Counted from the stretch's first letter, positions 16,240 through 49,980 are shown. The stretch is DNA of 64,000 nt from an uncultured Bacilli bacterium (GCA_947629265.1 CANRCZ010000002.1:6567-70566); one strand, 5' to 3'. A program made the numbers and translations. Notes: generated by a model not told the origin, from the sequence alone.

Positions 16240-17094
16240 ATGGGAAGATTATTTAATAAGAAAAAATTTGTTTTTGTTTTTGGATTATTGATAGGAGTAA
16301 TCATCATGGGAGGAGCGAGCTATGCTTTAAATGAGATCCAAAGTAGTAGTGTTAGTTATAAGAAAAAAGATGGAACGATTACGACTGTTAAACAAGCTTT
16401 AGATGATTTAATTAATACGTCATTAAGTAGAATTGATGAATTAGATGAGAAAGTAACTGATTATGAGAAAGGTATTCATTATTTAGCGGATGTGGTTAAA
16501 GTTGGAGAATATGTTGCCTATGATGCTGGTGAGTGGAATGAAACAAAAGAGAAACCAAAATCACAAGGAGAATTTGGTGGATATACTGATGGGCAAAGTA
16601 AAAATGATAGTGTAGAGTGGTGTTATAGTAATAGTCATACCACCTCATTAAAGGGATGGCGAGTGTTATCAAAAAATGAAACAACTAAAACTGTAACCAT
16701 TATACACGCCGGTCAACCGGAATGTTATTATCACGGTACTAATCCTACAGAAAGTATAACTAAGTTAAATGATCGAGCTAAAAATCAGTATTTAAACCAA
16801 ATATACGCCGAGTCAGCCCATGCCATGAATTATGGTGATGCATATGCAATTACCGGAGATGGTGGTGCTACTAGTGAGACATTGCGAAATACTGGATCTT
16901 TGTATTGGTTAACTAATTCTGGTTATCCAACTGGCTTATATTATGTGTGGTATGATGGTAGTATTCATAGTGATGAGACTAATTCATTTGGCTTTCGTCC
17001 AGTCATTGAATTAAAAGCTAAAATATTAACAACGGGTCAAGGATCAGATAAAGTAGGCAATAATAAAGCATGGCAACTTGTAAAACCACAATAA
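16240..17094 (+). CDS. membrane-anchored surface protein P1 of the two-Cys C-terminal domain family (possible C-type-lectin/FGE-like fold)
   Basis: Signal anchor FGLLIGVIIMGGASYA. Conserved SVSYKKKDGTITTVKQALDDLI segment. C-terminal domain VGEYVAYDAGEWN...VEWC...LKGWRVL...HAGQPECYYHG...YAESAHAMN...YWL...GFRPVIELK, shared with four paralogs. Confidence 0.6.
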   Translation: MGRLFNKKKFVFVFGLLIGVIIMGGASYALNEIQSSSVSYKKKDGTITTVKQALDDLINTSLSRIDELDEKVTDYEKGIHYLADVVKVGEYVAYDAGEWNETKEKPKSQGEFGGYTDGQSKNDSVEWCYSNSHTTSLKGWRVLSKNETTKTVTIIHAGQPECYYHGTNPTESITKLNDRAKNQYLNQIYAESAHAMNYGDAYAITGDGGATSETLRNTGSLYWLTNSGYPTGLYYVWYDGSIHSDETNSFGFRPVIELKAKILTTGQGSDKVGNNKAWQLVKPQ

Positions 17095-17116
17095 ATTATT
17101 TAGATCAATTATAAAA

Positions 17117-17150
17117 TAGTGTTCTTTTTAAATTGAACACTATTTTTTTT
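17117..17150. terminator. bidirectional rho-independent terminator between P1 and HTH-B
   Basis: ATAGTGTTC tttttaaattg GAACACTAT followed by a T8 run. Confidence 0.6.
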
Positions 17151-17355
17151 CTTTTAAAATTATTTCAATATTACATGCTTCACATATTTTTATAAAGTCA
17201 CTGTAATATATTCTATTTATACCTTGTTCTATATCTCTTAGCCAACCGATTGATTTATTTAATTTTTTAGCAAGTTCAGCTTGTTTAAAATTACCAGCTT
17301 GTCTTATAAACTTTACTGTTTCGCCTGTTTTATATTCGTTTCCTTTTATTTCCAT
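17140..17355 (-). CDS. XRE-family HTH transcriptional regulator (cassette B)
   Basis: 71-aa HTH protein (FKQAELAKKLNKSIGWLRDIEQG). Confidence 0.5.
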   Translation of the reverse strand: MEIKGNEYKTGETVKFIRQAGNFKQAELAKKLNKSIGWLRDIEQGINRIYYSDFIKICEACNIEIILKEKK

Positions 17356-17424
17356 ATTATTATAACCTTTCTTGATAATAGTTATTAAACCTTACTATAT
17401 CATTTATTTATAAAAAAAAGTGTT

Positions 17425-17495
17425 ATTACGGTTGACAACCGTAATATAGCATGTTATAATCTAAATAATAACGGTGGTCAACCGTACTTTATAAT
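17425..17495 (+). promoter_or_regulatory. two palindromic operators overlapping consensus promoters upstream of P2
   Basis: ATTACGGTTG-A-CAACCGTAAT (17425-45) has perfect 10-bp arms. It embeds TTGACA (17432-37), then a 17-nt spacer and TATAAT (17455-60). A second, related palindrome ACGGTGGTCAACCGT (17471-85) abuts TATAAT (17490-95). AGGAG SD. Confidence 0.6.
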
Positions 17496-17518
17496 ACATT
17501 AGTAGGAGATGAATATAA

Positions 17519-18349
17519 ATGAAATTAATTAAAAATTTATTTAAACAAAAACTTGGTATTGCTTTTGGATTGCTAATAGGAGTAGTACTTATGGGTGGTG
17601 TAAGTAGAGGACTCGACCAATATACTAGTGCAGGGGTGAGCTATACTGGAAAAGATGGAAAGTTAACAACTGTCAAAGATGCATTAGACAATTTGATAGA
17701 TAAATCATTAACTCAAATTGATACGTTAGAGAAAAAAGTTAGCGAGTTGGAAAAACAAAAATCAAATGTTTATTTAGCAGAGGTCGCAAAACAAGGTGAC
17801 TATGTAGCTTATGATGCTGGTAACTGGAATGGAGCAACTGGTCAACCAGCAAGTCAAGGTGGATTTGGAGGAAATGGAACAGGTAATCGTGGAAATAGTG
17901 TAGCATGTAGAGAAAGTACAGCTCCGTCCTTAAAAGGTTGGAGAGTATTAAAAATTGAAAGTGGCCAAGTTTACCTAGTTCACGCAAGCCAACCTGAATG
18001 TTACTATCATGGATATAATCCAAGTGATAGCCAAACTAAATTAGCTGCAAGGGCACAAAGTACTTACTTAAATGGAACATATGCCGAATCTGCACATGCT
18101 ATGAATAAAGAAGAGGTTGAAGCTATTGACTCATCTAATGACTTACGAGCCACTGGAACACAATATTGGTTGTCCACCATTTTCGGTACTTACAACATAT
18201 ATTACGTGTTCACAGATGGTAGCTTCCGCTCCCTCAGCGGCGACTCGCTTGGCTTCCGGCCGGTTGTAGTTCTTAAATCTACAGTCCTTACCACCGGAAA
18301 AGGATCAGATGGCCTTGGACATAGTAATGCATGGTTAATAACAATTTGA
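17519..18349 (+). CDS. surface protein P2 of the two-Cys C-terminal domain family, with an NNC-codon-rich C-terminal variable segment
   Basis: Same architecture as P1. The segment between YWL and GFRPVVVLK is GC-rich and A-poor with mostly C-ending codons (agc ttc cgc tcc ctc agc ggc gac ...). Confidence 0.6.
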   Translation: MKLIKNLFKQKLGIAFGLLIGVVLMGGVSRGLDQYTSAGVSYTGKDGKLTTVKDALDNLIDKSLTQIDTLEKKVSELEKQKSNVYLAEVAKQGDYVAYDAGNWNGATGQPASQGGFGGNGTGNRGNSVACRESTAPSLKGWRVLKIESGQVYLVHASQPECYYHGYNPSDSQTKLAARAQSTYLNGTYAESAHAMNKEEVEAIDSSNDLRATGTQYWLSTIFGTYNIYYVFTDGSFRSLSGDSLGFRPVVVLKSTVLTTGKGSDGLGHSNAWLITI

Positions 18350-18408
18350 CACAGATCCGCCCAAGCTAGGCTTAAGCCCTAGCGAACTGACAATTATGAG
18401 GTTAAAAT

Positions 18409-18597
18409 ATGTCAATGTTGAATGTGTATAATGAAATAAAGAAAGTTCATCCAGATTTTGTGTTGTTAATAAAATCTGGAACCTTTTATGAAATACTAGA
18501 AAATGACGCATACGTACTCAGTAATATAAGTGGTTATAAAATAGTAAATAAAACAAATTACCAATTATGTGGTTTCCCTAGTAATGTGCTTGCATAA
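18409..18597 (+). pseudogene. mutS: mutS N-terminal fragment (mismatch-binding domain I remnant)
   Basis: The 62-aa ORF KKVHPDFVLLIKSGTFYEILENDAYVLSNISGYKIV...CGFP resembles the MutS N-terminus (HPD..l.fr.GdFYElf..DA). The rest of mutS is absent. Confidence 0.4.
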
Positions 18598-18606
18598 ATA
18601 TAATAA

Positions 18607-18640
18607 GTTAGACTGATTAATTCAGTCTTTTATAATCCAT
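18607..18640 (+). terminator. rho-independent terminator (AGACTGATTAATTCAGTCT hairpin plus T-run)
   Basis: Hairpin agactga-ttaat-tcagtct followed by TTTTAT. A near-identical hairpin recurs at 19618-19650. Confidence 0.5.
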
Positions 18641-18723
18641 AAAAATGTAAATAAAAAAATATTTGTCAGAAATTATTATGTTTTTTAGTTTGAATGTGTT
18701 AAAATATACATGAGGGTGAAAAT

Positions 18724-19617
18724 ATGAAAGATACAAAAAAAATAGGAACTTTTATCGTAGCAGGTATTATCTTAGTTGGAGTTATTATAGTTGGTTTTAT
18801 GATTACCAATAAAAATTCATCAAAAAGTACAGCTAAAAATAAAACAAATTCAAAAACAGCAAATACTAGTATAAAAATAAATAGCAAAAAAGACTATGTT
18901 TATGATGCCGACTATAAATCCGAAACAAAACATTCTAAGTACGCTTACGATAAAAAACAAGACAAAATCTTAACCGATGATAAAGTAAATATAGAAGATA
19001 AAATAACAACCGTAAACGATGGTATAGTAAACTATAAATACAATGAAAATGTTAGTTACGTAAAAGATTTAAAAGTACCTTATATTAACATTAATAGTGA
19101 TGCTGCATTAAGTGTTAATACCACACTTGAAAAAATGTATACCCATGCTTATAAAAAATTCGATAATTTCGCTGAAACAAAAGAACCATTTTGTAGTCAA
19201 GTTTTAGACTATAAAGCTATAACAAATAAAGATATTTTATCCGTAATAGTCGTTGAAATAGTTAACTGTTCATCACAACCAATCACAAATTACCATACCT
19301 ATAACTTTGATTTAAAAACTGGTAACTTATTAACATATCAAGATATCTATAGTGGACTTAATATATCAGAAAGTGACCTTAAAACTAAAGTAGAAGAAGC
19401 TATCACTAAAAAACAAAAAGAAAAAATGGCAAATGATGAAGAATATGAAAGTGATTTTGATACCTTTAAAGAAGAAAGTATCAAAAATTACGAAGAAGCT
19501 GTTTCAAATGGTGAGGTTAAATACTATCTATCTGAACAAGGTAAACTTAATATCATAACAACCTTTAGCTTGCCACAAGGTAGCGGTGAATTTGAATACA
19601 ATATTGAAATCGATTAA
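18724..19617 (+). CDS. membrane-anchored extracytoplasmic protein (possibly DUF3298/DUF4163-like)
   Basis: N-terminal TM segment, then an S/T/K/N-rich linker and a globular domain. Family assignment is weak. Confidence 0.3.
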   Translation: MKDTKKIGTFIVAGIILVGVIIVGFMITNKNSSKSTAKNKTNSKTANTSIKINSKKDYVYDADYKSETKHSKYAYDKKQDKILTDDKVNIEDKITTVNDGIVNYKYNENVSYVKDLKVPYININSDAALSVNTTLEKMYTHAYKKFDNFAETKEPFCSQVLDYKAITNKDILSVIVVEIVNCSSQPITNYHTYNFDLKTGNLLTYQDIYSGLNISESDLKTKVEEAITKKQKEKMANDEEYESDFDTFKEESIKNYEEAVSNGEVKYYLSEQGKLNIITTFSLPQGSGEFEYNIEID

Positions 19618-19650
19618 AAGACTGATTAATTCAGTTTTTTTTAATACCTT
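19618..19650 (+). terminator. rho-independent terminator (GACTGATTAATTCAGT hairpin plus T8)
   Basis: Same hairpin as at 18611, followed by TTTTTTTT. Confidence 0.55.
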
Positions 19651-19713
19651 ATTAAAAAAACAGTGGACAAAATAAATAAACAAAACAAAAACATATTATT
19701 AATTGGTGATAAA

Positions 19714-20412
19714 ATGTTAAGATTTTTAAAATATCTATTCAAAGATTTCTATATCTTTACAGCTGCTTATTCCAATAATCTCTTTCCATATCCCTTATCC
19801 AAAGAAGAAGAAAAAAAATACGTTGAACTCGCTAAACTAGGTGATAAAGAAGCTAGAAATATCCTTATCGAACATAACCTAAGACTAGTAGCACATATCG
19901 TTAAAAAATACGACCATAACGCATCAATGTCCGACGATTTAATAAGTATCGGAACGATCGGTCTCATCAAAGGTATCGACAGCTATTCCTATAAACATGG
20001 AACTAGAATAACAACTTACTGTGCTAGATGCATCGAAAACGAAATCCTCATGTATTTTAGAAACGATAAAAAAAATAGCAAAAACATAAGCTTAAACGAA
20101 CCGATCGGCTTTGATAAAGAGGGAAACGAAATAACCTTTCTAGATATATTAAAAACACCAAAACCTGACTATGCTCTAGATATCCATAACCAAAATAATT
20201 TGGATCTTTTAAAAGACTATTTTAAAGTATTAAACGATAGAGAAAAAGAAATAATCATCAAAAGATATGGATTAGACGACGAAGAACCCATAACCCAAAA
20301 AGAGATCGCTAAAGTACTTAACATATCTAGAAGCTACGTATCACGAATAGAAAAAAGAGCTTTAACCAAAATGCTCAGAGAGTATATTAAAAATAAAAAT
20401 TATACTGACTAG
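19714..20412 (+). CDS. sigK: sporulation sigma factor, pro-sigma-K-like
   Basis: Pro-sequence ...SNNLFPYPLSKEEEKKYVELAKLGDKEARNILIEHNLRLVAHIVKKY closely matches Bacillus pro-sigma-K (NNAFPQPLS..EEKKYLEL..GD..AR..LIEHNLRLVAHIVKKF). Region 2 (DLISIGTIGLIKGIDSY) and region 4 (ISRSYVSRIEKRAL) are present. ATG at 19714 follows a GGTGA SD. Confidence 0.6.
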   Translation: MLRFLKYLFKDFYIFTAAYSNNLFPYPLSKEEEKKYVELAKLGDKEARNILIEHNLRLVAHIVKKYDHNASMSDDLISIGTIGLIKGIDSYSYKHGTRITTYCARCIENEILMYFRNDKKNSKNISLNEPIGFDKEGNEITFLDILKTPKPDYALDIHNQNNLDLLKDYFKVLNDREKEIIIKRYGLDDEEPITQKEIAKVLNISRSYVSRIEKRALTKMLREYIKNKNYTD

Positions 20413-20522
20413 AACAATTAAAGTTCTTTTTTTTAAAATTTAAAAAAATGTATTGAAAAACAATATTCTTTTGTGTTAAAATTATAGTGTTATTAAAAAA
20501 ATAAAAGAATTGAGGGATTATT

Positions 20523-20792
20523 GTGGATAGAAAAATCGTAATTGAAAATAAAAAGGGAATTAAATATGAAGCCGACATTATCATGTGTTTTGATATAGAA
20601 GAACTAAATAAAAGCTACGTAGTTTATAAATTCGATGATGAGGTAGAAGATGATTTATCAACCTTTCATACGTCTGTCTTAGTTTCAAAAAACGACGATA
20701 ACTATGTACTTGAAGATATCAAAGACGAGAAAGAATGGGATATTATTAAAGGTCTTATGAAAAAGATTGTCGACGAATCAGAGGAGGTTTAA
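20523..20792 (+). CDS. small acidic protein (DUF1292-like)
   Basis: 89-aa acidic ORF. Weak resemblance to DUF1292 proteins. Confidence 0.25.
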   Translation: MDRKIVIENKKGIKYEADIIMCFDIEELNKSYVVYKFDDEVEDDLSTFHTSVLVSKNDDNYVLEDIKDEKEWDIIKGLMKKIVDESEEV

Positions 20793-20794
20793 TT

Positions 20795-22768: not shown

Positions 22769-22800
22769 AAAATTAAGTGGATTAATCCACTTTTTTTAAT
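22769..22800 (+). terminator. rho-independent terminator
   Basis: AAGTGGATTAATCCACTT hairpin followed by a T7 run. Confidence 0.6.
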
Positions 22801-22919
22801 AAAAAAATAGTATTGAAAATAACAAACGGGTATATTACTAAATAAAAAAATATATAATAATATACTTAATTAGGCGAAGAAACATACTATTAAATATAAA
22901 GTAAAAAGAGGCGATAGTA

Positions 22920-23600
22920 ATGAAAGAAGAATTATGGCTAATTTGGAAAGATCCAATTTTACGTAGAAGATATAAAATCGGGTCATTAATTAAAGAAAAT
23001 AACAGATATATTTTTAATTATATTAATCCAGAGTTAGATGAGGCTAAAGCAGTAGGATTTAAATATTTTCCGGGTTTTGAAGATTTAATGAAATCATATG
23101 AAAGTGATGACTTATTTACAAATATTTTAACAAGATTACCAAATGAAACAAGACCCGATTATTTAGAAATTTTAAATTGTTATAATTTGGAAAAAGATTC
23201 AGATGATTTTGATATTTTAAAGGCAACTCGCGGAAGAACAATTACGGATAATTATGAATTCGTTCCAGCTTTTGACTCAAGTAAAATTGAGTTCGATGTA
23301 GCAGGAACAAGTCATTGCAGTGATGTAGAAGAATGTAAAAATTATCTTAAGGTTAATAAAAAATTATATTTAGACCCAGAACCAGAAAATTTAAATGATC
23401 CTAATGCAATTAAAATTATCTTTAAAGAAAATGGTAAATCGTATCATTTGGGTTATGTGCCAAGATATTATTGTAAAGAATTATTAGCAGAATTAAAAAA
23501 AGGAACCCAGTATTCTGCAATGATTCAAAGCTTAAATCTAGACTCACAATTAAGTGATGAAAATATTACTGCTAATGTTAAACTTATTCTTAATATTTAA
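22920..23600 (+). CDS. hypothetical protein
   Basis: 226-aa ORF with an AAGAGG SD. No recognisable motif. Confidence 0.3.
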   Translation: MKEELWLIWKDPILRRRYKIGSLIKENNRYIFNYINPELDEAKAVGFKYFPGFEDLMKSYESDDLFTNILTRLPNETRPDYLEILNCYNLEKDSDDFDILKATRGRTITDNYEFVPAFDSSKIEFDVAGTSHCSDVEECKNYLKVNKKLYLDPEPENLNDPNAIKIIFKENGKSYHLGYVPRYYCKELLAELKKGTQYSAMIQSLNLDSQLSDENITANVKLILNI

Positions 23601-23794
23601 TTTTAGGTCATAAATCTAGATACTAAATGCAAAAATAAAGTCATTTTAATACATTTATTTACAATTAAATATGAAAATAATTATATAACAAGATGGTAGG
23701 AATAATTAAAATTATTCTTTTTTTCATGATATTGATATTTTTGTCTAAAATTAGTGACATAAACCATATATTTTGTTATAATAAATATGGATTT

Positions 23795-23870: not shown

Positions 23871-23890
23871 ATTAGAAAGGAAGAAATATT

Positions 23891-25549: not shown

Positions 25550-25622
25550 GCAAACTTGTTTTTTCATGTTATAATTAGCATATGTGTATTATAAATTAAG
25601 AAAAAGATGAGGAGTTAAAGAA

Positions 25623-33735: not shown

Positions 33736-33745
33736 GGGTGATAAT

Positions 33746-39248: not shown

Positions 39249-39479
39249 TTATATATCTTTTCTAATTAGTTCTTTAATTTCAAATTCATCGTTATCACTT
39301 ACAAATAAAATTTTGTAACCACATATTTCAGCGATTTTTTCGATTGTTTCAAAATTGATATCTGTAAAACCTGTTTCATATCTTGAAAGAGTATTTTGTT
39401 TAACATTTATTTTATTTGCCATATCTGTTTGACTTAATCCTTTTTTCTTTCTCATGTATTTAATAGCTAAACCAATCAT
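39249..39479 (-). CDS. XRE-family HTH transcriptional regulator (cassette C)
   Basis: 76-aa HTH protein (KGLSQTDMANKINVKQNTLSRYETG). Confidence 0.55.
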   Translation of the reverse strand: MIGLAIKYMRKKKGLSQTDMANKINVKQNTLSRYETGFTDINFETIEKIAEICGYKILFVSDNDEFEIKELIRKDI

Positions 39480-39500: not shown

Positions 39501-39585
39501 TATCCAATAAATGTATAAAAAATACTTTACTTATCCAATAATTGGATATATAATATAAATAGATAATATCCTATTATTGGATATT
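39501..39585. promoter_or_regulatory. operator set and promoter for P3 / HTH-C
   Basis: Palindrome TATCCAAT-A-ATTGGATA (39532-48) lies between TTACTT and TATAAT (39549-54). A related element ATATCC-tattatt-GGATAT sits at 39567-85. A TATCCAATAA half-site lies at 39501-10. Confidence 0.5.
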
Positions 39586-40719: not shown

Positions 40720-40778
40720 AATAATTTAATTACAATTTAGGCCTTATTTTTCAACTTGTTTTTTGTAATTAAAACGTC

Positions 40779-40815
40779 TTGAAAATATAATATAATTATT
40801 GTATAATTAAGATGT
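40779..40815 (+). promoter_or_regulatory. promoter of P4 (TTGAAA ... TGTATAAT extended -10)
   Basis: TTGAAA at 40779-84 and TG-n-TATAAT about 17 nt downstream. AGGAG SD at 40826-30 serving the ATG at 40843. Confidence 0.45.
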
Positions 40816-40861
40816 AAAAATAAAGGAGAGGAAGATAAAAAAATGAAAGAAAAAATAAGGC

Positions 40862-43800
40862 TTGGGGGGGGGTTATTCAACCCTAAAAAATAAGGGATTT
40901 ACGCTAATAGAGCTATTGGCAGTAATCGTTATATTAGCAATCATCGCAACGATAGCAGTGCCAATAGTATTAAACTTAATTGAACAATCAAGAAAAAATG
41001 CTTTTAAGGATAGTGTCTATGGCATTATGGAAGCAGCAGATCTATTCGTAGTATCAGAAAATTATAATCCTAATGATGAAATAGAATTTGTCTGCGATGG
41101 AGCATCTTGTTCTTTAGATGATGGTAGACAACTATCATTTAAAGGAGATGTACCTATAAGTGGAAGCATTCAAATAAAAGATAAAAATACTTTAGCATAT
41201 TTTATAAAAAGTAATGAATATTGTGCTTTAGGTACAAAAGAAAATTTAGATGTAAATAAAGACTGTACCAAACTAGATTATACAAAAGCTGAAATAGAAT
41301 TAAATTTAGTAAAGTCAACAACTAATAGTGTTATAGTATCATTTGAAGCGACAGATATCGAATCAGGTATATCTAATGTAGAGGTTAAATTAAATGATGA
41401 TGTAAAAAATTTTGAATATGAAAAATCACCAATTGTAACCAGTGGTGAAGCTGGTATAGTATTTGATAAACTAGAAAGTAATAAAGAATACACAGTAACA
41501 TTAACTGTAACAAATGGTAACTACTTAACTGAAACTAAAGATTTAAAAGTATCAACTAAAGAAATGAAAAATCCAGATTTAGTATCTATAAATGATCCAA
41601 CAGAAGCTCAAGATGGATATTTTAAAACTCAAACGATAAAAATAACTTTTGATAAAGAAAATGTATCAGAAACAACCAAACATTATGTAAAGACAACTAA
41701 AGAGGGTACAAGTAGTATAGGGGTTACAAAGAGATGTGGTAATATTGATGATACAGATACACCAGATGTTAATAAATGTGAAACTATAAATAGTACAACA
41801 ACATTAGCAGCAAATGTATGGTATGAAATTGATGGTGATTTAGATGTTAAATATGATAAGACAGATAAAACCACAGATAAAAATTTATATGCAATAACAT
41901 ACGATGGAACAAATTATAGTAATTCATCAACATATACCTTATCTAAAATAGATGGAACAAAACCAACATTAGAAATGAAAGAAATAATATCTAAAACAGA
42001 TAAGTTATCAATAGGATATACCGCAACTGATGATGAATCAGGAATAGAAACAAGAACATGTAAATATGGAACAACTCAAAGTAATTTAGATAAAGAAGGA
42101 GCAATAACTGATACCAATTGTGGCCTTACAAAATTAAATCCAAAAACAACATATTACTATAAAATATGTGTAACTGATAAAGTAGGTAATGAAGAGGTAT
42201 GTAAAGAAGGACATACAGATACACAAGCATTTATTAATCCAAAACTAGATTCAGTTATAAGCCCTACAACAGCAGTAAGTGGCTTTGTGAAGACACAAAG
42301 TATAACAGCAACATTTAACAATGCAAATATAGAAAATCCAAATCATTATATAAAAACAACAAGAGAAGGAACAGCAAGCGATAATGTAACAGAAAGTTGT
42401 GGAAGCGAGGACAATCCAGGTAATTGTACAAGTATTACAGGAACAACAACATTAAGTGCAAATACATGGTATAAAGTAAATGGAACTACAATTACGGTAA
42501 AATATGATAAAGCTAGTACAGCAACTGGAGATACTTTAACAGCCATAACCTATGATGGAACAAACTATAGTGGAGTAGCAACATATACATTATCAAAGAT
42601 AGATGCAACAAATCCAACATTTACAATGAATACAGCAACTTCAACAACAAATAGTATAAGTATACCATATACAGCATCAGATAGTGAAACAGGAGTAAAT
42701 GTAACATGTAAATATGGAACAACAAATGGAAACTATGGAACTAGTGGATCATTAGCAAATAATACATGTACATTATCAGGCTTAAAAGCAGGAACAACAT
42801 ATTACTATCAAATGTGTGCTAGTGATGGAGTAGGAAATGAAGCAACATGTCAAACAAGTAGTTTTGCAACTAAATCAATAACAGCACCAAGTATAACATT
42901 AACAACAAATACAGCAGGGACAGTAGCAAATTACGCATTAAAACAAGTGGCAGCAGTAACATTTAATAAAACTAATGTAACAAGCCCAACATATTATATA
43001 AAAACAACGAAAACAGGAACAAGTAGTTTGGGTGTAACACAAAGTTGTGGAAATGGAACTACACCAGGAACTTGTAGTAATGTAACAAGTACAACAACAT
43101 TAAGTGCAAATCTATGGTACAAAGTAAGTGGAAATGTTAATGTAACATATAGCACACCAAGTACAGCAACAGGAACACTATCAGCCATAACATACGATGG
43201 AACAAATTATAGTACAGCAGCAAGTCAAGCTATAAGTATGATAGAGCAATCTGCAACAAGTATATCATTAAATAAAACAAGTGCAACAATAAAAGAAGGA
43301 GAGACAACAACATTAACAGCAACAATATCACCAACTACAACAACAAATAAGAATGTAACGTGGTCGACGAATAATGCTAATGTAGCAACAGTATCAGGAG
43401 GAACAGTAACAGGAAAAGGAGTAGGAACAGCTACGATAACAGCAAAGACAGCAAATAATCAAAGTACAACAGCAACAATAACAGTACAACCCAAAGGTGA
43501 ATTATTATATGGTAAAGTATCTGTTGGAGATTACGTAGCCTATGATGCTGGAAAATGGGGTGCTGCTACTGATATACCAACATATTCAAGTTCCGTGAAA
43601 TTTGGAGGAAATGCAGCAAATACAAATAAAGGAATGAGTGCAAAATGTTATAATTCTACAACATTAAACGGATGGCGTGTACTTAAAAAAGAAAATAATC
43701 AAGTAACAATAGTCCACGCTGGCCAACCCGAATGTCATTTTCATTATTATTCTGAAATGAACGCTATAACTTTATTAAATAACAGAGCAAAACAATACAT

Positions 43801-44134
43801 GGATTCAACATATGCCGAATCAGCTCATGCTATGACTAGAGATGAAGCCAAAGCAATTACTGGTGATGAGCGTAGTACTGATAACGACTTACGAGACATT
43901 GGAGCGTTTTATTGGCTAGCTAGTATTTCTAGCGAGAGTGTCGGCATGGGCTACGATAACCTTTACCTATTTTACGTTAACGGCGCTGGCGGCATCAACG
44001 AATACGGCAATGGCGTCAATGAAGCGTACGGTTTCCGTCCTGTAGTAGTCTTAAAATCTAATGTCTTAACCTCAGGACAAACAACAGATCAATTTGGAAA
44101 TGCTAAATCTTGGACTTTAGTAGGATTAAAATAA
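40862..44134 (+). CDS. giant prepilin-type (class III signal) surface protein P4: pilin N-terminus, three FN3-like repeats, a Big_2 domain and the family two-Cys C-terminal domain
   Basis: KG|FTLIELLAVIVILAIIATIAVP is a canonical type IV prepilin cleavage/N-methylation motif. Three ~215-aa repeats (...TYDGTNYS...YTLSKIDGT...CKYGTT...YYYK.C..D..GNE) follow. Big_2-like segment SISLNKTSATIKEGETTTLTATISP...VTGKGVGTATITAKT. C-terminal domain VGDYVAYDAGKWG...AKCYNS...LNGWRVL...HAGQPECHFHY...YAESAHAM...YWL...GFRPVVVLK with an NNC/AAC-rich variable segment. The track start is a TTG with no SD. The real start is probably the ATG at 40843 after -1 G slippage. Confidence 0.6.
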   Translation: MGGGYSTLKNKGFTLIELLAVIVILAIIATIAVPIVLNLIEQSRKNAFKDSVYGIMEAADLFVVSENYNPNDEIEFVCDGASCSLDDGRQLSFKGDVPISGSIQIKDKNTLAYFIKSNEYCALGTKENLDVNKDCTKLDYTKAEIELNLVKSTTNSVIVSFEATDIESGISNVEVKLNDDVKNFEYEKSPIVTSGEAGIVFDKLESNKEYTVTLTVTNGNYLTETKDLKVSTKEMKNPDLVSINDPTEAQDGYFKTQTIKITFDKENVSETTKHYVKTTKEGTSSIGVTKRCGNIDDTDTPDVNKCETINSTTTLAANVWYEIDGDLDVKYDKTDKTTDKNLYAITYDGTNYSNSSTYTLSKIDGTKPTLEMKEIISKTDKLSIGYTATDDESGIETRTCKYGTTQSNLDKEGAITDTNCGLTKLNPKTTYYYKICVTDKVGNEEVCKEGHTDTQAFINPKLDSVISPTTAVSGFVKTQSITATFNNANIENPNHYIKTTREGTASDNVTESCGSEDNPGNCTSITGTTTLSANTWYKVNGTTITVKYDKASTATGDTLTAITYDGTNYSGVATYTLSKIDATNPTFTMNTATSTTNSISIPYTASDSETGVNVTCKYGTTNGNYGTSGSLANNTCTLSGLKAGTTYYYQMCASDGVGNEATCQTSSFATKSITAPSITLTTNTAGTVANYALKQVAAVTFNKTNVTSPTYYIKTTKTGTSSLGVTQSCGNGTTPGTCSNVTSTTTLSANLWYKVSGNVNVTYSTPSTATGTLSAITYDGTNYSTAASQAISMIEQSATSISLNKTSATIKEGETTTLTATISPTTTTNKNVTWSTNNANVATVSGGTVTGKGVGTATITAKTANNQSTTATITVQPKGELLYGKVSVGDYVAYDAGKWGAATDIPTYSSSVKFGGNAANTNKGMSAKCYNSTTLNGWRVLKKENNQVTIVHAGQPECHFHYYSEMNAITLLNNRAKQYMDSTYAESAHAMTRDEAKAITGDERSTDNDLRDIGAFYWLASISSESVGMGYDNLYLFYVNGAGGINEYGNGVNEAYGFRPVVVLKSNVLTSGQTTDQFGNAKSWTLVGLK
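40864..40872. repeat. poly-G tract (G9) between the SD-linked ATG (40843) and the body of the P4 ORF
   Basis: aggctt GGGGGGGGG ttattc. At G9 the ATG at 40843 terminates after 14 codons (MKEKIRLGGGLFNPKK*). At G8 it reads through as MKEKIRLGGGYSTLKNKG|FTLIELL... Confidence 0.85.
41560..43230 (+). repeat. three tandem ~640-nt intragenic repeats encoding FN3-like modules of P4
   Basis: Recurring DNA and protein blocks (acatacgatggaacaaattatag..., ITYDGTNYS, TLSKIDGT/ATNPT, TCKYGTT, TTYYYK/QMC). Confidence 0.6.
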
Positions 44135-44285
44135 TAACGAAGAAACTCTAAAATTATTTGGGGTTTTTTTGTTTTATATCAAAAATATAAATGTCGAAAA
44201 TTGTCGTACAATTTTTGATACAAATTTTTTCTAAAAAAAAGGAAATGAAAAAGTTTTGTCGTATCATATAAGTAGGGAGGGAAAA

Positions 44286-46301
44286 ATGAAAAGGTACGCA
44301 TTTGAAAAACAAGATGGTATAAAAGATTGTGGTGTAGCATGTTTAAAAATGATTATAAGATATCATAAAGGCTACGTTGGTACAGAACTATTAAGAGATA
44401 TGACTAAAACCGACAAAAATGGTGTAACGGCTTTCCACTTAGTAAATACATTAAATAAACTAGGTTTTAAATCTAGAGGTTTGAAAGTATCAATTGATAA
44501 TATCAAAACCTTACCAGCCATAGCTCATGTCACTATCGATAACACTTATAATCATTATGTCGTTATATACAATATCAATAAACAAAAAGAAGAAATCCTA
44601 ATAGCGGATCCAGCTAAAAGAATAATGAAAATGTCTTTTCAAAAGTTTAATGAAATATATAATAACATTATTATCGAAGCTATTCCATATAAAAAAATAC
44701 CCGTTATCAAAGATTATTCAATCTCAAAATTCATTCTAAATTTAATAAAAAATGAGAAAAAAATAATATGTATAATTCTAATAATGTCACTAATTACAAC
44801 GGTATTATCGATTATATCATCTTTCTATGTACAGCTATTACTAAATAATTTGAATCGAAAAATAATTATTCTCTTCTTTTTCATGAGTATATTGTTACTT
44901 ATATTAGAATATATAAAAAACAATATCTTAATTAAATTAGATAGTAAGCTTGATCGTAAACTGACGATGAGTACCTACCAAAACATTATAAACCTCCCTT
45001 ATCAATATTTTAAGAACCGAACAACCGGAGAAATAATAACTCGCTTAAATGACTTAAAAAGTGTCAAAAATACAATAAATAGAGTAATTATTACGATCTT
45101 TATCGATGGTATCCTAGTCTTTTTATCAAGTATCATTTTAATCAAAATAAATGTAGTGCTATTCTTAATAGCAGTAACGATTTTGATTATGTATATACTG
45201 ATAACAATCATATTTAATAATAAATTTAAATACGAAATAAACGATATAAAAGAAAAAAACGAATATCTAAATAGTAACCTAATCGAAAGTATCGATGGTA
45301 TTGAAACAATAAAAGGACTAAACCTCCAACCAGAATTTTTAAATAAAGTTGAAAAAATATATACAGATTATATGAAAGAAAGTATAACCCTAGATAAAAA
45401 AATAAATATTCAATTTACCTTAAAAGAAATGGTCAACACTATCGGTAACATGATTATTCTATGTGTAGGTGTATGGTTTATTCAAAAGAAGATAATGGAT
45501 TTCGGTAGTCTATTCACTTTCCTGACTTTAGTAGCTTACTTTTTAAATCCAATTAGAAATATTATCGACTTAAATATCGATATCACTGAATCAATCAGTG
45601 CTATAAAAAGAATCTTAGAACTAGATTACTACCAAAATGATCCTGGTAAAATAAACATTGATGAAATAAACAATATCGAAATAAAAAAACTATCTTATTC
45701 CTATAACGACTACAATTATATATTAAAAGATATCAATTTAAAAATATCTAAAGGTGAACATATTATGGTAGTTGGTACAAGTGGTAGTGGTAAATCTAGT
45801 TTACTAAAAATAATTAATAATTACTATGAAACCAAAAAACAAGTTTATATAAATGATAACGAAATAAACCAATTAAAAAATATACCAATTAATTACATAT
45901 CCCAAAACGAAATTTTATTTACTGACACTTTATTCAATAATTTAAAACTTAATCGTCAAATAGATAAAAACACTATTGAAAAAATATACAAAGAGTACGA
46001 AATCGATAAAATAATTCCTTTAAACGGATTAATCGAAGAAAATGGTTTTAACATATCCGGTGGTGAAAAACAAAGAATTGTACTCGCTAGAACATTATTA
46101 AATCAACCTAAGTTTTTAATTATCGACGAAGCCTTAAATCAAGTAGATATCAACATGGAAAGAAAAATATTAAAACAAATACTAAAAATCAAAAATTTGA
46201 CTTTAATATACGTATCACATCGTAATAACAACGTCGATCTATTTGATAGAGTTATTAAAATCGAAGACGGGTTCTTAAAAGAAGATATCAGAAAGGAATG
46301 A
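44286..46301 (+). CDS. peptidase-C39 domain ABC exporter (bacteriocin/double-glycine peptide processing transporter)
   Basis: N-terminal C39 domain with the catalytic Cys in DCGVACLKMII. Six TM segments. C-terminal ABC ATPase (GTSGSGKSS, LSGGEKQRIVLAR, FLIIDEA). ATG at 44286 follows GGGAGGG. Confidence 0.75.
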   Translation: MKRYAFEKQDGIKDCGVACLKMIIRYHKGYVGTELLRDMTKTDKNGVTAFHLVNTLNKLGFKSRGLKVSIDNIKTLPAIAHVTIDNTYNHYVVIYNINKQKEEILIADPAKRIMKMSFQKFNEIYNNIIIEAIPYKKIPVIKDYSISKFILNLIKNEKKIICIILIMSLITTVLSIISSFYVQLLLNNLNRKIIILFFFMSILLLILEYIKNNILIKLDSKLDRKLTMSTYQNIINLPYQYFKNRTTGEIITRLNDLKSVKNTINRVIITIFIDGILVFLSSIILIKINVVLFLIAVTILIMYILITIIFNNKFKYEINDIKEKNEYLNSNLIESIDGIETIKGLNLQPEFLNKVEKIYTDYMKESITLDKKINIQFTLKEMVNTIGNMIILCVGVWFIQKKIMDFGSLFTFLTLVAYFLNPIRNIIDLNIDITESISAIKRILELDYYQNDPGKINIDEINNIEIKKLSYSYNDYNYILKDINLKISKGEHIMVVGTSGSGKSSLLKIINNYYETKKQVYINDNEINQLKNIPINYISQNEILFTDTLFNNLKLNRQIDKNTIEKIYKEYEIDKIIPLNGLIEENGFNISGGEKQRIVLARTLLNQPKFLIIDEALNQVDINMERKILKQILKIKNLTLIYVSHRNNNVDLFDRVIKIEDGFLKEDIRKE

Positions 46302-46383
46302 TAAAATGAAAATCATAAGATTAATCTTAAAAATAATGCTATTATTTGTTTAAACTAAAAACTAACTAAGAAAGGAGATATTT

Positions 46384-46545
46384 ATGGAATTAAATCAAAA
46401 TGAATTATTAACAATCAATGGTGGTGTCAATTGGAAAATCGTCGGAGGTATCGTCGTAACTTTAATAAGCTTTATCTCTGGAGTAGTAGATGGTTTTACT
46501 CATCCTAAAGCTTGTAGTTTGAAAGGAAAGAAATCATGGGTATAG
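46384..46545 (+). CDS. double-glycine-leader peptide 1 (bacteriocin-like or pheromone-like precursor)
   Basis: Not in the track. MELNQNELLTINGG|VNWKIVGGIVVTLISFISGVVDGFTHPKACSLKGKKSWV. Leader matches the LS-x-x-EL-x-x-I-x-GG consensus. Strong SD AAAGGAGA. The mature part is hydrophobic with GxxxG-like spacing. Confidence 0.5.
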   Translation: MELNQNELLTINGGVNWKIVGGIVVTLISFISGVVDGFTHPKACSLKGKKSWV

Positions 46546-46694
46546 AAAAGAGTGAATTACTAAATATAAAAGGAGGCATTAAAATAACTGCTGCCTTATT
46601 AACAAGTATTTATAAATGCCTAAACTACGTAAGCGAACTAGGAAAAAGCATTGGCTCAACCATCAGACGTATTCAAACTAATAGAATGTGTTAA
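46536..46694 (+). CDS. double-glycine-leader peptide 2 (bacteriocin-like precursor)
   Basis: Not in the track. MGIEKSELLNIKGG|IKITAALLTSIYKCLNYVSELGKSIGSTIRRIQTNRMC, cationic with two Cys. Overlaps the stop of peptide 1. SD GAAAGGAAAG. Confidence 0.5.
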   Translation: MGIEKSELLNIKGGIKITAALLTSIYKCLNYVSELGKSIGSTIRRIQTNRMC

Positions 46695-46696
46695 AA

Positions 46697-46725
46697 TAAA
46701 AGCTTAATGCTTTTATTTTTGTTTG
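46697..46725 (+). terminator. rho-independent terminator after the GG-peptide pair
   Basis: AAAAGC-ttaat-GCTTTT followed by ATTTTTG. Confidence 0.55.
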
Positions 46726-46757
46726 GAAATTGGTATAATATCATTGGGGGATAGATT

Positions 46758-46910
46758 ATGGAAGAACTAGAAAATTTATTAAACGAATTAGAAGAAAATA
46801 TTGAAGCATTACAAGAACAACAAGAAAATTTAGATAATAACGTAAACAAAGGTAATATCTTAAAAGAATTAGACGAAATAATGGGTGATATCGAAAATAA
46901 AACCTTATAG
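46758..46910 (+). CDS. small acidic coiled-coil protein (50 aa)
   Basis: Not in the track. MEELENLLNELEENIEALQEQQENLDNNVNKGNILKELDEIMGDIENKTL with a GGGGGA SD. Function unknown, and not a typical membrane immunity protein. Confidence 0.25.
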   Translation: MEELENLLNELEENIEALQEQQENLDNNVNKGNILKELDEIMGDIENKTL

Positions 46911-46984
46911 TTTAAAAAACAATTAAACGGTAGTTGTTAAATCACTAAACTATGTAGTATAATTTATTAGATGGGAGAGATTTC

Positions 46985-48043
46985 ATGATAGAGAGATTAA
47001 AAAGTATTGAAGAAAAATACAACAGCTTAACTTTAGAACTTACCAAAGAAGAGGTTCTTTCCAACGTCAAAGAAACACTTAGATTAACCAAAGAACAAGC
47101 TAGCTTAAAAGATGCTTACGAAGCTTATCAAGAATATAAAAAAATCGAAAGTGGAATAAACGATGCTTCAGAACTTTTAAAAGATCCTGAAATGGGTGAA
47201 ATGGCTAAAGAAGAATTAGAAGATTTAAAACAAAAAAAAGAAGAACTAGAAAAGAAGCTAGAAATTTTATTGTTACCTAAAGATCCTAACGATTTAAAAA
47301 ATGTTATCGTTGAAATAAGAGGTGCCGCTGGTGGTGATGAAGCTAATATCTTCGCTGGTGATCTATATCGTATGTATTTTAAATATGCTGAAAAACAAGG
47401 ATGGAGTATCGAGGTATTAAACGAAGAACCTAGCGAAGCTGGTGGATATTCCCAAATTGAATTCATGGTCAAAGGTGATAACGTTTACTCTAAATTGAAA
47501 TACGAAAGTGGCGCACACCGTGTTCAAAGAGTACCAGCTACGGAAACGCAAGGACGTGTTCATACCTCAACAGCAACTGTTTTAGTTATGCCAGAAGCTG
47601 AAGAGTTAGATTTTGAACTCGATATGAACGAGGTTAGAATTGATATAACAAGGAGTAGTGGCTGTGGTGGTCAAGGTGTCAATACAACCGACTCAGCTGT
47701 CCGTTTAACACATATTCCAACTGGTATTGTCGTTTATTCACAAACCGAAAGATCACAAATTAAAAATAAAGAAAAAGCTATAAAGATATTAAAGACAAGA
47801 CTATATGATTTAAAAGAACAAGAAAGAGAAAAAGAACTAGGTGCTGAAAGAAAGAACAAAATCGGAACTGGTGATCGTTCTGAAAAGATAAGAACTTATA
47901 ATTATAGTCAAAATAGAGTAACAGATCACCGTATCGGTTTTACTTTAAAACAACTTGATAGAGTAATGGAGGGGGCACTTGATGAAATAATTGAAGCCCT
48001 TATTACAGAAGATCAAAATCGCAAACTTAAAGGTGAAGCTTAA
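46985..48043 (+). CDS. prfA: peptide chain release factor 1
   Basis: PAT tripeptide motif (RVPATETQGR) and the GGQ motif (SGCGGQGVNTT). Confidence 0.9.
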   Translation: MIERLKSIEEKYNSLTLELTKEEVLSNVKETLRLTKEQASLKDAYEAYQEYKKIESGINDASELLKDPEMGEMAKEELEDLKQKKEELEKKLEILLLPKDPNDLKNVIVEIRGAAGGDEANIFAGDLYRMYFKYAEKQGWSIEVLNEEPSEAGGYSQIEFMVKGDNVYSKLKYESGAHRVQRVPATETQGRVHTSTATVLVMPEAEELDFELDMNEVRIDITRSSGCGGQGVNTTDSAVRLTHIPTGIVVYSQTERSQIKNKEKAIKILKTRLYDLKEQEREKELGAERKNKIGTGDRSEKIRTYNYSQNRVTDHRIGFTLKQLDRVMEGALDEIIEALITEDQNRKLKGEA

Positions 48044-48046
48044 ATA

Positions 48047-48754
48047 ATGACCGATATTGATTATTTAAAAAAATACTATGATGGTGATATATCTTCCGCT
48101 ATCAAACGTTTAAATGATGGTGAAGCTGTTCAATATATAGTAGGTAATGTCGATTTTTGTGGTAATAAAATAAAAGTTAATAAAAATGTTTTGATACCTC
48201 GTTTTGAAACAGAAGAACTAGTTATGAAGACATACGAATATATCAAACAATTATTTAGTGATAAAGGAAAAATTCTCGACTTAGCAACTGGTAGTGGTTG
48301 TATAGCGATAACTTTAAAAAAATTATTACCTAATTATCAAGTTACTGCTTCTGATATTTCACCTGAGGCCTTACAGGTAGCTAAAGAAAATGCTGATGGT
48401 TTGGATATTGCTTTTTTTGAGGGTGACATGTTAGAACCGATCACTGATAAGTATGATATTATCATATCCAATCCACCTTATTTAACCCCTGATGATGATA
48501 TTATGGATATTGTTATTAGTAATGAACCTCATTTAGCATTATTCGCTTCTAATAATGGGTTATATTATTATGAAAAGATACTTAAAAATATAAAAAAATA
48601 TCTAAATAAAAAAAGCCTTATAGCTTTTGAAATAGGTGAAAATCAAGCTGAAGAAATATCAAAATATATAGAAAAGTATCTACCTAATGCTACATATAAA
48701 ATCGAAAATGATATGCAAAATCGCAATCGCTTCATTTTTATTTTTAACAATTAA
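48047..48754 (+). CDS. prmC: release factor glutamine N5-methyltransferase
   Basis: SAM-binding DLATGSGCIA and the NPPY motif (IISNPPYL). Immediately downstream of prfA. Confidence 0.8.
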   Translation: MTDIDYLKKYYDGDISSAIKRLNDGEAVQYIVGNVDFCGNKIKVNKNVLIPRFETEELVMKTYEYIKQLFSDKGKILDLATGSGCIAITLKKLLPNYQVTASDISPEALQVAKENADGLDIAFFEGDMLEPITDKYDIIISNPPYLTPDDDIMDIVISNEPHLALFASNNGLYYYEKILKNIKKYLNKKSLIAFEIGENQAEEISKYIEKYLPNATYKIENDMQNRNRFIFIFNN

Positions 48755-48758
48755 AAAA

Positions 48759-49043
48759 TCACGAACGTGATTTTTTTTCAATAGTAATTATTAAATCTTC
48801 ACCTTTAGCTACCTCTAAAAATTTATCTAAAGACATTTTATTTCTACCTAATTCATAACTTTGAACTGTGTCCTTGCTTCTATTTATCTTTTTAGCGAAA
48901 TCAGCTTGTGTCATTTCTGACCATTCACGTATTATTTTCAGTATTTCCTTTGGTTCGTAATTGTTAGCTATTATTTTCATATTAACTCCTTTAAATAATT
49001 GTATTAAAAATATATTTACATGTTCTAAAATACGTATTGACAA
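48759..49043 (-). CDS. XRE-family HTH transcriptional regulator (cassette E)
   Basis: 94-aa HTH protein (EMTQADFAKKINRSKDTVQSYELG). Confidence 0.55.
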   Translation of the reverse strand: MSIRILEHVNIFLIQLFKGVNMKIIANNYEPKEILKIIREWSEMTQADFAKKINRSKDTVQSYELGRNKMSLDKFLEVAKGEDLIITIEKKSRS

Positions 49044-49101
49044 TACGCAAATGTTATAGTAGAATATAATTGTAAGATACGTATTATTAATACGTTATAA
49101 T
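49033..49101 (+). promoter_or_regulatory. two palindromic operators overlapping promoters upstream of P5
   Basis: CGTATTG-A-CAATACG (49033-47) embeds TTGACA (49037-42), then a 17-nt spacer and TAGAAT (49060-65). A second palindrome ACGTATTA-T-TAATACGT (49079-95) abuts TATAAT (49096-101). AGGAGG SD. Confidence 0.6.
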
Positions 49102-49116
49102 AGGAGGCAGTTATAA

Positions 49117-49980
49117 ATGAAATTGATTAAAAATTTATTGAAACAAAAACTAGGTGTGACCTTTGGATTAGTAGTTGGTGTCATGTTGATGGGTGGTGTA
49201 AGTAAAGGACTTGACCAATATAATAGTACTGGGGTCAGCTATACTAAAAGTGATGGAACAGTAGTTTCGGTAAAAGATGCTTTAGATGAATTGATAACTA
49301 AATCGTCTAAAGTTGATACATTAGAAAAACAGGTAGCTGATTATAAAAAAGTGATTTTTAACTTATATGATAAAGTAGCTGTAGGAGATTACGTAGCGTA
49401 TGATGCTGGAACATGGGATTCATCAGTACCAGATAAACCAATAGAACAAGGAAAGTTCGGTGGATATAGTCAAGGACAAAGTAAAAATTCTAGTGTAGAA
49501 TGGTGTTGGAAAAGTGATTATAAAACAACATTAAACGGATGGCGTGTACTTAAAAAAGATGGTGGAAAAGTTTACCTAGTTCACGCTGGCCAACCTGAAT
49601 GTTATTATCATGCGGGTAGTAGATATATTGACGCCAGTGAAAAAGCCTTAAACGAAAGAGCACAAAGTACTTACTTAAATACAACATATGCAGACTCAGC
49701 ACATGCTATGAATTATCAAGAAGCATATGATATTGATAAAACTGAACCTATGGTTGCTACCAATAATGATTTACAAAAAACTGGAGATTATTATTATCTG
49801 GCTGCTGACTTTACTGGCAGCATCTGGAGCGTGGAAAATGACGGCAGCATGTGGTCCAACAACATCGCCTCGCGAGGTTTTCGTCCCGTCATCGTCCTAA
49901 AAGCAAGCGTTCAAACTACAGGTAAAGTACACGATGAATTTGGACAAGAAGCTTGGAACTTAATATTACCACCTCAATAA
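49117..49980 (+). CDS. surface protein P5 of the two-Cys C-terminal domain family, with an NNC-codon-rich variable segment
   Basis: Signal anchor FGLVVGVMLMGGVSKG. Conserved SVSYTKSDGTVVSVKDALDELI. C-terminal domain VGDYVAYDAGTWD...VEWC...LNGWRVL...HAGQPECYYHA...YADSAHAMN...YYL...GFRPVIVLK. The variable segment 49800-49905 is rich in gac/ggc/agc/atc/tcc/aac/gcc/gtc codons. Confidence 0.6.
   Translation: MKLIKNLLKQKLGVTFGLVVGVMLMGGVSKGLDQYNSTGVSYTKSDGTVVSVKDALDELITKSSKVDTLEKQVADYKKVIFNLYDKVAVGDYVAYDAGTWDSSVPDKPIEQGKFGGYSQGQSKNSSVEWCWKSDYKTTLNGWRVLKKDGGKVYLVHAGQPECYYHAGSRYIDASEKALNERAQSTYLNTTYADSAHAMNYQEAYDIDKTEPMVATNNDLQKTGDYYYLAADFTGSIWSVENDGSMWSNNIASRGFRPVIVLKASVQTTGKVHDEFGQEAWNLILPPQ

Follow-up and report, generated by a model that had tools for sequence, protein, structure and literature searches.

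Homopolymeric contingency loci are familiar from Neisseria pilC, which has a poly-G tract in its signal-peptide region, and from the poly-G genes of Campylobacter. Modular pilins, as described for PilB and PilC of Streptococcus sanguinis (PMC8179133, PMC9934059), are a known adhesion strategy (PMC8179133). Heads of the DUF6273 type occur in the N-terminal domain (NTD) of the immunoglobulin A (IgA) protease of Thomasclavelia ramosa (PDB 9qa6), which is annotated as DUF6273 and has a C-type-lectin-like core (PMC12402451, PMC12237041), and in the "tentaclin" receptor-binding proteins of gut phages, where they are the receptor-binding modules (PMC10743442). Here we describe a 64,000-nucleotide stretch of DNA from an uncultured Bacilli bacterium (GCA_947629265.1, CANRCZ010000002.1:6567-70566; "the window") that encodes five paralogous proteins, P1 to P5, with a common C-terminal head related to these. 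Four of the genes each stand beside a small XRE-type helix-turn-helix (HTH) gene and palindromes of their own, and the fifth, P4, has a run of nine G residues (G9) in its leader-peptide codons (Table 1). The parts are all of known kinds: a CTLD (C-type-lectin-like domain)/DUF6273 head, a modular pilin, an XRE repressor with dual operators, and a poly-G contingency tract. The combination, a paralogous surface family in a low-GC Bacillota with a private repressor/operator set or a shared poly-G leader module, appears undescribed, and literature searches found no case of private repressors and poly-G modules joined in one surface family. On balance, we think it probable that P1 to P5 form a variable adhesin family whose copies are gated singly, either by a Cro-like repressor/operator pair or by a slipped-strand tract.

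All five open reading frames (ORFs) of the first-pass annotation are present where it had placed them, with the start codon of P4 corrected (see below). They have in common a C-terminal domain of ca. 195 amino acids (aa), with 51 invariant columns in a MAFFT alignment and pairwise identities of 43 to 53% (BLASTP). A hidden Markov model (HMM) of this domain recovered exactly P1 to P5, and no others, from the window ORFs (hmmsearch, E 1e-71 to 1e-87), confirming that the five domains are related to one another. A hydrophobic N-terminal anchor with an SVSY...VKxALDxLI segment aligns in P1, P2, P3, and P5, in keeping with the four copies for which it had originally been noticed; none of these matches the type IV pilin N-terminal motif or has a Glu at +5. 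In the full-length model of P5, residues 3-27 form a transmembrane helix, 41-61 a beta-hairpin and helix, 64-77 a helical stalk, and ~80-287 the head. The predicted membrane helix and stalk of P5, together with the pilin-type matches of P4, bear out the initial description of surface proteins and support a surface-directed location for P1 to P5.

The head domain itself gave no match in Pfam, NCBIfam, PHROGs, or PADLOC. None of P1 to P5 matched DUF6273 (PF19789) even at E ≤ 0.1, the model being matched weakly by 5 of 30 relatives (best E, 2.8e-4), and the head-domain profile found one spurious match only among PDB sequences. In both respects the window copies differ from the described DUF6273 heads, as they do in having no diversity-generating retroelement (DGR) nearby. 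An AlphaFold2 model of the P1 head (residues 86-284; 30-sequence alignment) was nevertheless confident (predicted local distance difference test score, 97.5; predicted template modeling score, 0.93) and resembled solved CTLDs in three-dimensional fold, and DUF6273 gut-phage proteins ranked top in a Foldseek comparison with viral models. These predictions support a C-type-lectin-like fold, in agreement with an early guess that the head might be of lectin type, and the domain is a divergent relative of DUF6273. Likeness to the C-terminal domain of Legionella Lcl/DUF1566 and to classical C-type lectins is distant (ca. 10 to 13% identity). An EPN/QPD-type calcium/carbohydrate motif is not among the conserved head columns, a statement about columns only, the binding loop not having been searched for in the model. 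Among close family members, sequence varies most in the loop that immediately precedes the GFRP motif.

Two conserved Cys residues had suggested a disulfide. Across 262 homologous domains, both were present in 136 and both absent in 116, leaving 10 discordant, and nearby His residues varied independently of the pair. Since the Cys residues covary with each other and not with His, a disulfide is favored, and the head is likely disulfide braced. A His/Cys zinc site such as the D/H/C site of the IgA protease NTD was rejected on the same pattern, and the covarying Cys pair sets the window subfamily apart from that domain.

Searched against 1.84 billion cluster representatives, the domain profile found 1,437 proteins at E ≤ 1e-3, 131 of them at E ≤ 1e-30. 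In 44 species-representative loci with the domain, a large share of the copies sit on prepilin-type N termini and most others on a plain N-terminal membrane anchor. The window genes probably represent a lineage-specific, expanded family of cell-surface ligand-binding proteins, most likely adhesins. Two giant relatives, P0196 (5654 aa) and P0199 (2947 aa), contain 10 to 11 tandem copies of the lectin-fold domain, which there also serves as a repeat unit.

In P4, the head is joined to what reads as a modular type IV pilin. The protein matches PF07963 N_methyl (30.7 bits; cutoff, 21.2) and TIGR02532 (31.9 bits; cutoff, 16.3), with additional Big_2 and fn3 matches, and is the only copy with the pilin N-terminal motif, in the form of a class III signal peptide, KG/FTLIELLAVIVILAII (KG/FTLIELL). 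Its parts run in the order leader MKEKIRLGGGYSTLKNK, prepilin motif G/FTLIE, repeated immunoglobulin (Ig)/FN3-like units, Big_2 domain, and lectin-like head. P4 and many distant relatives thus resemble S. sanguinis PilB and PilC in grafting a binding module onto a class III signal peptide/pilin N terminus. In contrast to those pilins, the grafted module here is a lectin-fold head whose family lacks a working Pfam model, and a plain membrane anchor has been swapped in for the pilin module in four of the five window copies.

Four XRE-type genes were found in the window with a window-derived HMM. Each of them adjoins a family gene, P4 alone of the five being without such a neighbor: HTH-A, HTH-B, HTH-C, and HTH-E, each passing the Pfam threshold for HTH_3 or HTH_26, are divergent from P1, P2, P3, and P5, respectively. 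Four tiny divergent genes of this class, of 71 to 94 aa, had been reported; the genes and their class stand, and the length of HTH-E does not, its start being most likely the ATG at 48980, which has a ribosome-binding site (73 aa), and not the TTG at 49043. The HTH proteins have no sensor domain and match the PADLOC "Control_protein" and PHROG repressor models. They are comparable to the controller (C) proteins of restriction-modification (R-M) systems and to phage Cro/CI in being HTH-only proteins of 70 to 80 aa, with two adjacent palindromic operators over promoters and likely autoregulation. They differ from both in that the gene under putative control encodes a surface protein and in that one chromosome has several nonidentical copies, each next to a paralogue.

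HTH-B, HTH-C, and HTH-E are homologous (28 to 30% identity by BLAST), and HTH-A has no detectable BLAST similarity to any of them. HTH-B found only itself in a search for homologues among 5.8 billion proteins. HTH-E has 169 homologues, the closer ones among the best 120 of 169 being 70 to 84% identical; its relatives occur in many Bacilli metagenome-assembled genomes (MAGs), including phage-like contexts without a lectin-fold gene. The notion that repressors and operators had codiverged therefore survives for some cassettes (B, C, and E) and fails for the unrelated HTH-A. Because HTH-B lacks homologues and HTH-E is kept in phage-like contexts, recruitment or swapping of repressors would be at least as likely as codivergence. 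One homologous contig (L046) has an identical P2 gene, promoter, and pair of operators and a different sequence at the expected HTH-B start (L046 1-40 versus window 17356-17395). It could derive from a strain without HTH-B or be the chimeric end of a low-coverage contig; two other assemblies (L084 and L085) have the layout of the window, unlike L046.

Each of the four cassettes, lettered after its HTH gene, has a palindromic motif found in the whole window only within that cassette. In cassette A this is the exact 10-mer CCGATATCGG (15811 and 16178); in B, ACGGT-N5-ACCGT (17428 and 17471); in C, TATCCAAT half-sites (39501, both arms of 39532-39548, and 39576); and in E, CGTATT-N3-AATACG (49033 and 49080). 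Each motif would be expected ca. 0.4 times by chance in 64 kb, and the window has few perfect palindromes whose arms are 7 or longer with 2 or more G/C each, several of the others being terminators. The private palindromes of the first-pass annotation were thus found again at their places, together with further copies, every one inside its own cassette. In a consensus scan, the best promoter match of each region (12/12, 11/12, or 10/12) coincides with an operator. The palindromes of B and E do enclose a TTGACA −35 box, as had been seen, and the site in E reads TTGTCA on the other strand, so that it may serve both divergent promoters. The further claim that the palindromes lie on the promoter of the large gene is supported, with a correction for A, where the only strong promoter-like site adjoining an operator copy is outside the intergenic region, beyond the 3′ end of HTH-A, and points antisense through HTH-A toward P1. 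Separately, an invertible-element reading of cassette A was rejected, the two CCGATATCGG copies having otherwise unlike flanks and no recombinase nearby.

The pairing of repressor and palindrome is best documented for cassette E. CGTATT-N3-AATACG occurs upstream of the HTH-E orthologue in all seven fetched loci that have one and in none of 78 other loci, operator and repressor of this cassette thus being coconserved in other genomes, and the recognition helix [KR]SKD[TS][VI]QSY is conserved among the orthologues. This co-occurrence and the conserved helix are good indirect evidence that the palindromes are the cognate sites of HTH-E. In one such locus (L050), the orthologue is 84% identical and is transcribed divergently to a pilin-type family member; their intergenic region contains CGTATTGTCAATACG and another site like it, with TTGACA again within the operator. 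The pilin-type gene itself (L050 2187-3936, minus strand) is broken into two ORFs, one of 98 aa (N_methyl) and one of 490 aa, with a 20-nt overlap, the result of a frameshift or sequencing error, with no homopolymer at the junction. In five others (L052 to L056), a 76%-identical orthologue faces eight or nine small phage- or mobile-element-like genes across a divergent region (~3860-4000) with three ACGTATT-N3-AATACGT-type sites. This heading of phage-like gene rows suggests that the HTH-E repressor family may have come from mobile elements. Elsewhere in the domain family, the relative P0019 has a divergent HTH_3 gene, and a P2-like relative is paired with yet another HTH_3 protein.

P4 has its own promoter and no HTH gene, as first described; its proposed start at 40862 was in error, being a TTG inside the G9 tract, and an ATG with a ribosome-binding site lies at 40843. 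Read from this ATG, G9 leads to a stop after 16 codons (OFF), and G8 or G11 opens the frame MKEKIRLGGGYSTLKNKGFTLIELL... with a product of 1096 to 1097 aa (ON). Nine bases long, the tract is above the 8-base minimum taken for a slipped-strand contingency locus, and it sets the reading frame by its length from within the 5′ coding region. G9 tracts occur twice in the window, far beyond chance for 64 kb of DNA with 27% GC. The −35 box, ribosome-binding site, ATG, MKEKI[RK]LGGG, and G run are conserved in three homologous loci (L049, G10; L057 and L058, G9), where this promoter/leader/poly-G module precedes membrane-anchored paralogues. A pilin-type relative (L001) has G10 at the same position as the P4 tract. 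Tract length, G9 or G10, hence differs between homologous loci and assemblies, all the observed states being OFF. About 36 of 75 homologue protein calls start with MGGGY, MVTNG, or MTSDG, and these starts look like gene-caller truncations downstream of poly-G tracts. The likeness to the Neisseria and Campylobacter loci lies in a G8-to-G10 run that sets the frame from within the leader-peptide codons of a pilus-associated adhesin, and in a second tract in a surface-polysaccharide-type acyltransferase gene. The differences are the low-GC Bacillota host, the inclusion of the tract in a promoter and leader module common to paralogues, and the fact that length switching is here a prediction from sequence. 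Nothing relevant came from literature searches for phase variation by poly-G in Erysipelotrichaceae or in pilins of Firmicutes.

Other G runs were seen. The second G9 of the window (8167-8175) belongs to a gene for an Acyl_transf_3 membrane acyltransferase (ORF 7198-8325, plus strand); it lies close to the 3′ end and is in frame, and at other tract lengths the protein would be truncated from 375 aa to 328 to 354 aa. The flanks of the two tracts are alike (AAAATGAGGCTCG9TAT in the acyltransferase gene, AAAATAAGGCTTG9TTAT in P4), and the acyltransferase tract is likely a further contingency locus. In two distant relatives (L017 4232-4241 and L026 228-234), a G10 or G7 run stands directly upstream of TATAAT, in the spacer of a candidate promoter. 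Just beyond P2, a 62-aa ORF (18409-18597, plus strand) with its own ribosome-binding site and terminator matches MutS domain I only and represents what is left of a mutS gene or else a mini-protein in its own right; if this genome lacked mismatch repair, its homopolymer tracts would be hypermutable.

We propose the following arrangement. In P1, P2, P3, and P5, a membrane or signal anchor at the N terminus and a short stalk of helix would hold out the head, and P4 would carry it at the end of a type IV pilin module followed by Ig-like spacers. Beside four copies, a sensor-less, divergently transcribed Cro/C-protein-like XRE repressor would bind two copies (in cassette C possibly three) of its cassette-specific palindrome. 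The first would cover part of the adhesin promoter (−35 box or spacer) and probably also the back-to-back repressor promoter, and the second would lie just 3′ of the predicted transcription start, giving repression and autoregulation insulated from the other cassettes. P4 would instead be gated by slipped-strand length change of its G9 tract, OFF as assembled and ON at G8 or G11. Conjointly, these controls would let combinations of adhesin heads differ from cell to cell. A stronger version, in which the four cassettes are orthogonal Cro-like pairs acting as heritable epigenetic (bistable) toggles that set each paralogue independently ON or OFF alongside the poly-G switches, strikes us as doubtful; under it, convergent transcription from the 15821 promoter through HTH-A would supply the second arm of a double-negative loop in cassette A. 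By functional analogy only, the arrangement recalls the Mycoplasma Vlp/Vsa and Bacteroides invertible-promoter loci, where many surface paralogues each have their own ON/OFF control; the window has no invertase and no inverted-repeat-flanked promoters, private trans-acting repressors or poly-G tracts presumably taking their place.

Table 1. Family genes, HTH genes, candidate operators and promoters, and the P4 homopolymer (window coordinates)
Feature	Position	Strand	Description
HTH-A	15883..16122	-	79-aa XRE-type; Pfam HTH_26 35.3 bits (cutoff 22), also HTH_3
HTH-B	17140..17355	-	71-aa XRE-type; HTH_3 28.3 bits (cutoff 23)
HTH-C	39249..39479	-	76-aa XRE-type; HTH_3 59.1 bits (cutoff 23)
HTH-E	48759..48980	-	73-aa XRE-type; HTH_3 25.4 bits (cutoff 23)
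P1	16240..17094	+	Signal anchor, SVSY/ALDxL motif, short helical stalk, C-type-lectin-like head
P2	17519..18349	+	Paralogue, architecture as P1
P3	39607..40719	+	Signal anchor, SVSY motif, Big_2 Ig-like spacer, lectin-like head
P4	40843..44134	+	Putative modular type IV pilin; long ORF 40862-44134, ATG 40843 out of frame as assembled
P5	49117..49980	+	Paralogue: transmembrane helix, beta-hairpin and helix, stalk helix, head
Operator O_A1 CCGATATCGG	15811..15820		Abuts −35 box of strong plus-strand promoter-like site
Cassette A promoter-like site	15821..15849	+	TTGACT-17-TATACT with TG extension, 10/12 consensus
Operator O_A2 CCGATATCGG	16178..16187		Between HTH-A and P1
Operator O_B1 TATTACGGTTG-A-CAACCGTAATA	17424..17446		Perfect 11+11 palindrome covering −35 box
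P2 promoter	17432..17460	+	TTGACA-17-TATAAT, 12/12, with TG
Operator O_B2 ACGGTGGTCAACCGT	17471..17485		~+4 to +18 from predicted P2 transcript start
Half-site TATCCAAT	39501..39508		Adjoins HTH-C start; possible autoregulatory site
P3 promoter	39526..39554	+	TTTACT-17-TATAAT; 17-bp spacer is exactly O_C1
Operator O_C1 TATCCAAT-A-ATTGGATA	39532..39548		Perfect palindrome
Operator O_C2 TATCCTAT-T-ATTGGATA	39567..39583		15/16 palindromic, 3′ of −10 box
P4 promoter	40779..40807	+	TTGAAA-17-TATAAT; 5′ module recurs in paralogues of other assemblies
G9 homopolymer	40864..40872	+	Within P4 leader-peptide codons
Operator O_E1 CGTATTG-A-CAATACG	49033..49047		Covers TTGACA on plus, TTGTCA on minus strand
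P5 promoter	49037..49065	+	TTGACA-17-TAGAAT, 11/12
Operator O_E2 ACGTATTA-T-TAATACGT	49079..49095		~+7 to +23

Several observations weigh against singly gated adhesins. No prepilin peptidase or assembly ATPase/platform genes accompany P4 in the 64-kb window. The promoters are matches to a consensus in AT-rich DNA, and promoter-like sites are overall no commoner than in shuffled sequence. Cassette A departs from the layout of B, C, and E in its 10-bp operator, in the 367 bp between its copies, and in its unrelated HTH protein. HTH-B has no homologue other than itself, orthologues of HTH-E are found in phage-like loci that lack a family gene as well, and distant relatives of the family have no adjacent HTH gene, bar an uncertain case (L015, with an HTH gene ~690 bp upstream). 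A unique HTH-B, an unrelated HTH-A, and distant relatives without an HTH gene indicate a lineage-specific pairing with repressors of mixed origin; the HTH pairing is not a conserved "system" across the domain family. Lastly, the readable poly-G loci are OFF in five cases out of five, and none of 73 homologues was called in the ON frame. This is odd for random switching and could instead reflect pseudogenes, homopolymer assembly errors, or transcriptional or ribosomal slippage.

In one rival account, the HTH genes would be ordinary local regulators that happen to lie beside a plain set of surface proteins; these would all answer to a shared signal, without insulation, bistability, or variation between cells, and the G9 tract would mark a pseudogene or be an assembly error. 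XRE genes adjoining unrelated genes are very common, HTH-A, HTH-B, and HTH-E differ in evolutionary history, and both the missing HTH genes of distant relatives and the uniformly OFF poly-G copies would be as expected. We nonetheless hold this account to be unlikely, given that every XRE gene detected in the window flanks a family gene and all but one family gene has such a neighbor, that the HTH proteins, at 70 to 79 aa, have no sensor domain, and that the operators are distinct and private. The conservation of the module from −35 box to tract over several loci and assemblies, with both G9 and G10, would moreover be unexpected for decaying pseudogenes.

Less probable again, in our judgment decidedly so, is that the cassettes are domesticated or decayed modules of a phage or integrative and conjugative element, in which a Cro/CI-type repressor and a receptor-binding-like or superinfection-exclusion protein would serve phage defense or exclusion and not adhesion. 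The 76%-identical HTH-E orthologues, which stand at the head of small phage-like genes and have the same operator in triplicate, would fit this origin, as would the frequency of DUF6273 heads in gut phage receptor-binding proteins and the resemblance of the HTH proteins to phage repressors and R-M control proteins. The lectin-fold proteins, however, match no PHROG or PADLOC model except in their Ig and pilin parts (PADLOC gave no match to P1 to P5 and generic HTH matches only to the small genes), and at their N termini they have membrane anchors or prepilin leaders in place of modules for virion attachment. There are also no integrase or structural genes nearby, the flanks being core genes, and the family is elsewhere mostly pilin borne.

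It is very unlikely that programmed slippage in transcription, or +1 ribosomal frameshifting, on the G run gives the poly-G genes a low constitutive expression, in place of heritable DNA phase variation. Of the five readable loci, four exceed an in-frame length by exactly one G, and no homologue is called in the ON frame, but L001 would need the opposite shift (G10 versus ON at G8 or G11), the runs of L017 and L026 are in promoter spacers, where DNA length change alone can act, and the acyltransferase G9 is in frame. A DGR-target reading was rejected, no reverse transcriptase match having been obtained in Pfam scans of nearly all window ORFs of at least 100 aa. The three rival explanations each fit less of the evidence than a family of singly gated adhesins.

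The host is an uncultured low-GC (27%) gut Bacillota with sporulation genes. Within the window, the family is scattered among housekeeping genes, as the first-pass annotation had it: cassettes A and B lie between murG-murB-ftsQ and a sigma factor gene, cassette C and P4 between uvdE and a C39 ABC exporter, and cassette E between prfA-prmC and yabP-yqfD. The Pfam scans found no integrase, reverse transcriptase, or pilus machinery in the window, and an Rfam scan found two tRNAs and nothing else. The copies in ENA come from three metagenome assemblies, on contigs of 1 to 3 kb, and relatives are found in gut MAGs labeled Bacilli, Clostridia, or Erysipelotrichaceae. A GTDB scan gave relatives all at ≤44% identity, and a JGI metagenome scan gave distant relatives only, without an HTH gene and without a poly-G tract.

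Among the neighboring genes, the C39-peptidase ABC exporter (44256-46985), of bacteriocin/peptide-export type, is immediately 3′ of P4; over the next ca. 680 bp, the plus-strand frames listed contain no ORF that reaches 60 aa, which could leave room for small double-glycine-leader peptide genes. A 788-aa ATPase (8434-10800, plus strand) matches the PADLOC candidate defense family PDC-S06 (E 5e-48), with weaker PrrC, AriA, and LmuB-like matches. The longest perfect palindrome of the window (16+16 bp, 59098-59129) is near a YoeB/ParE-type toxin gene (59556-59858).

For annotation, the G tract is a warning, as it seems to make gene callers truncate or misstart roughly half of the family, and the head is a new domain family to curate, with ca. 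1,400 cluster representatives that Pfam does not at present capture. If orthogonal, the repressor/operator pairs would be a natural set of small genetic parts, and the toggle version, if true, would amount to phase variation in a protein-based form. For low-GC Bacillota, poly-G contingency loci on pilus-borne adhesins would be a rare documented case, literature searches having turned up no earlier description. Should singly gated adhesins prove right, small-genome gut Bacillota known from metagenomes only would diversify their binding through many lectin-fold heads, each switched separately, with two switching mechanisms at work within one family.

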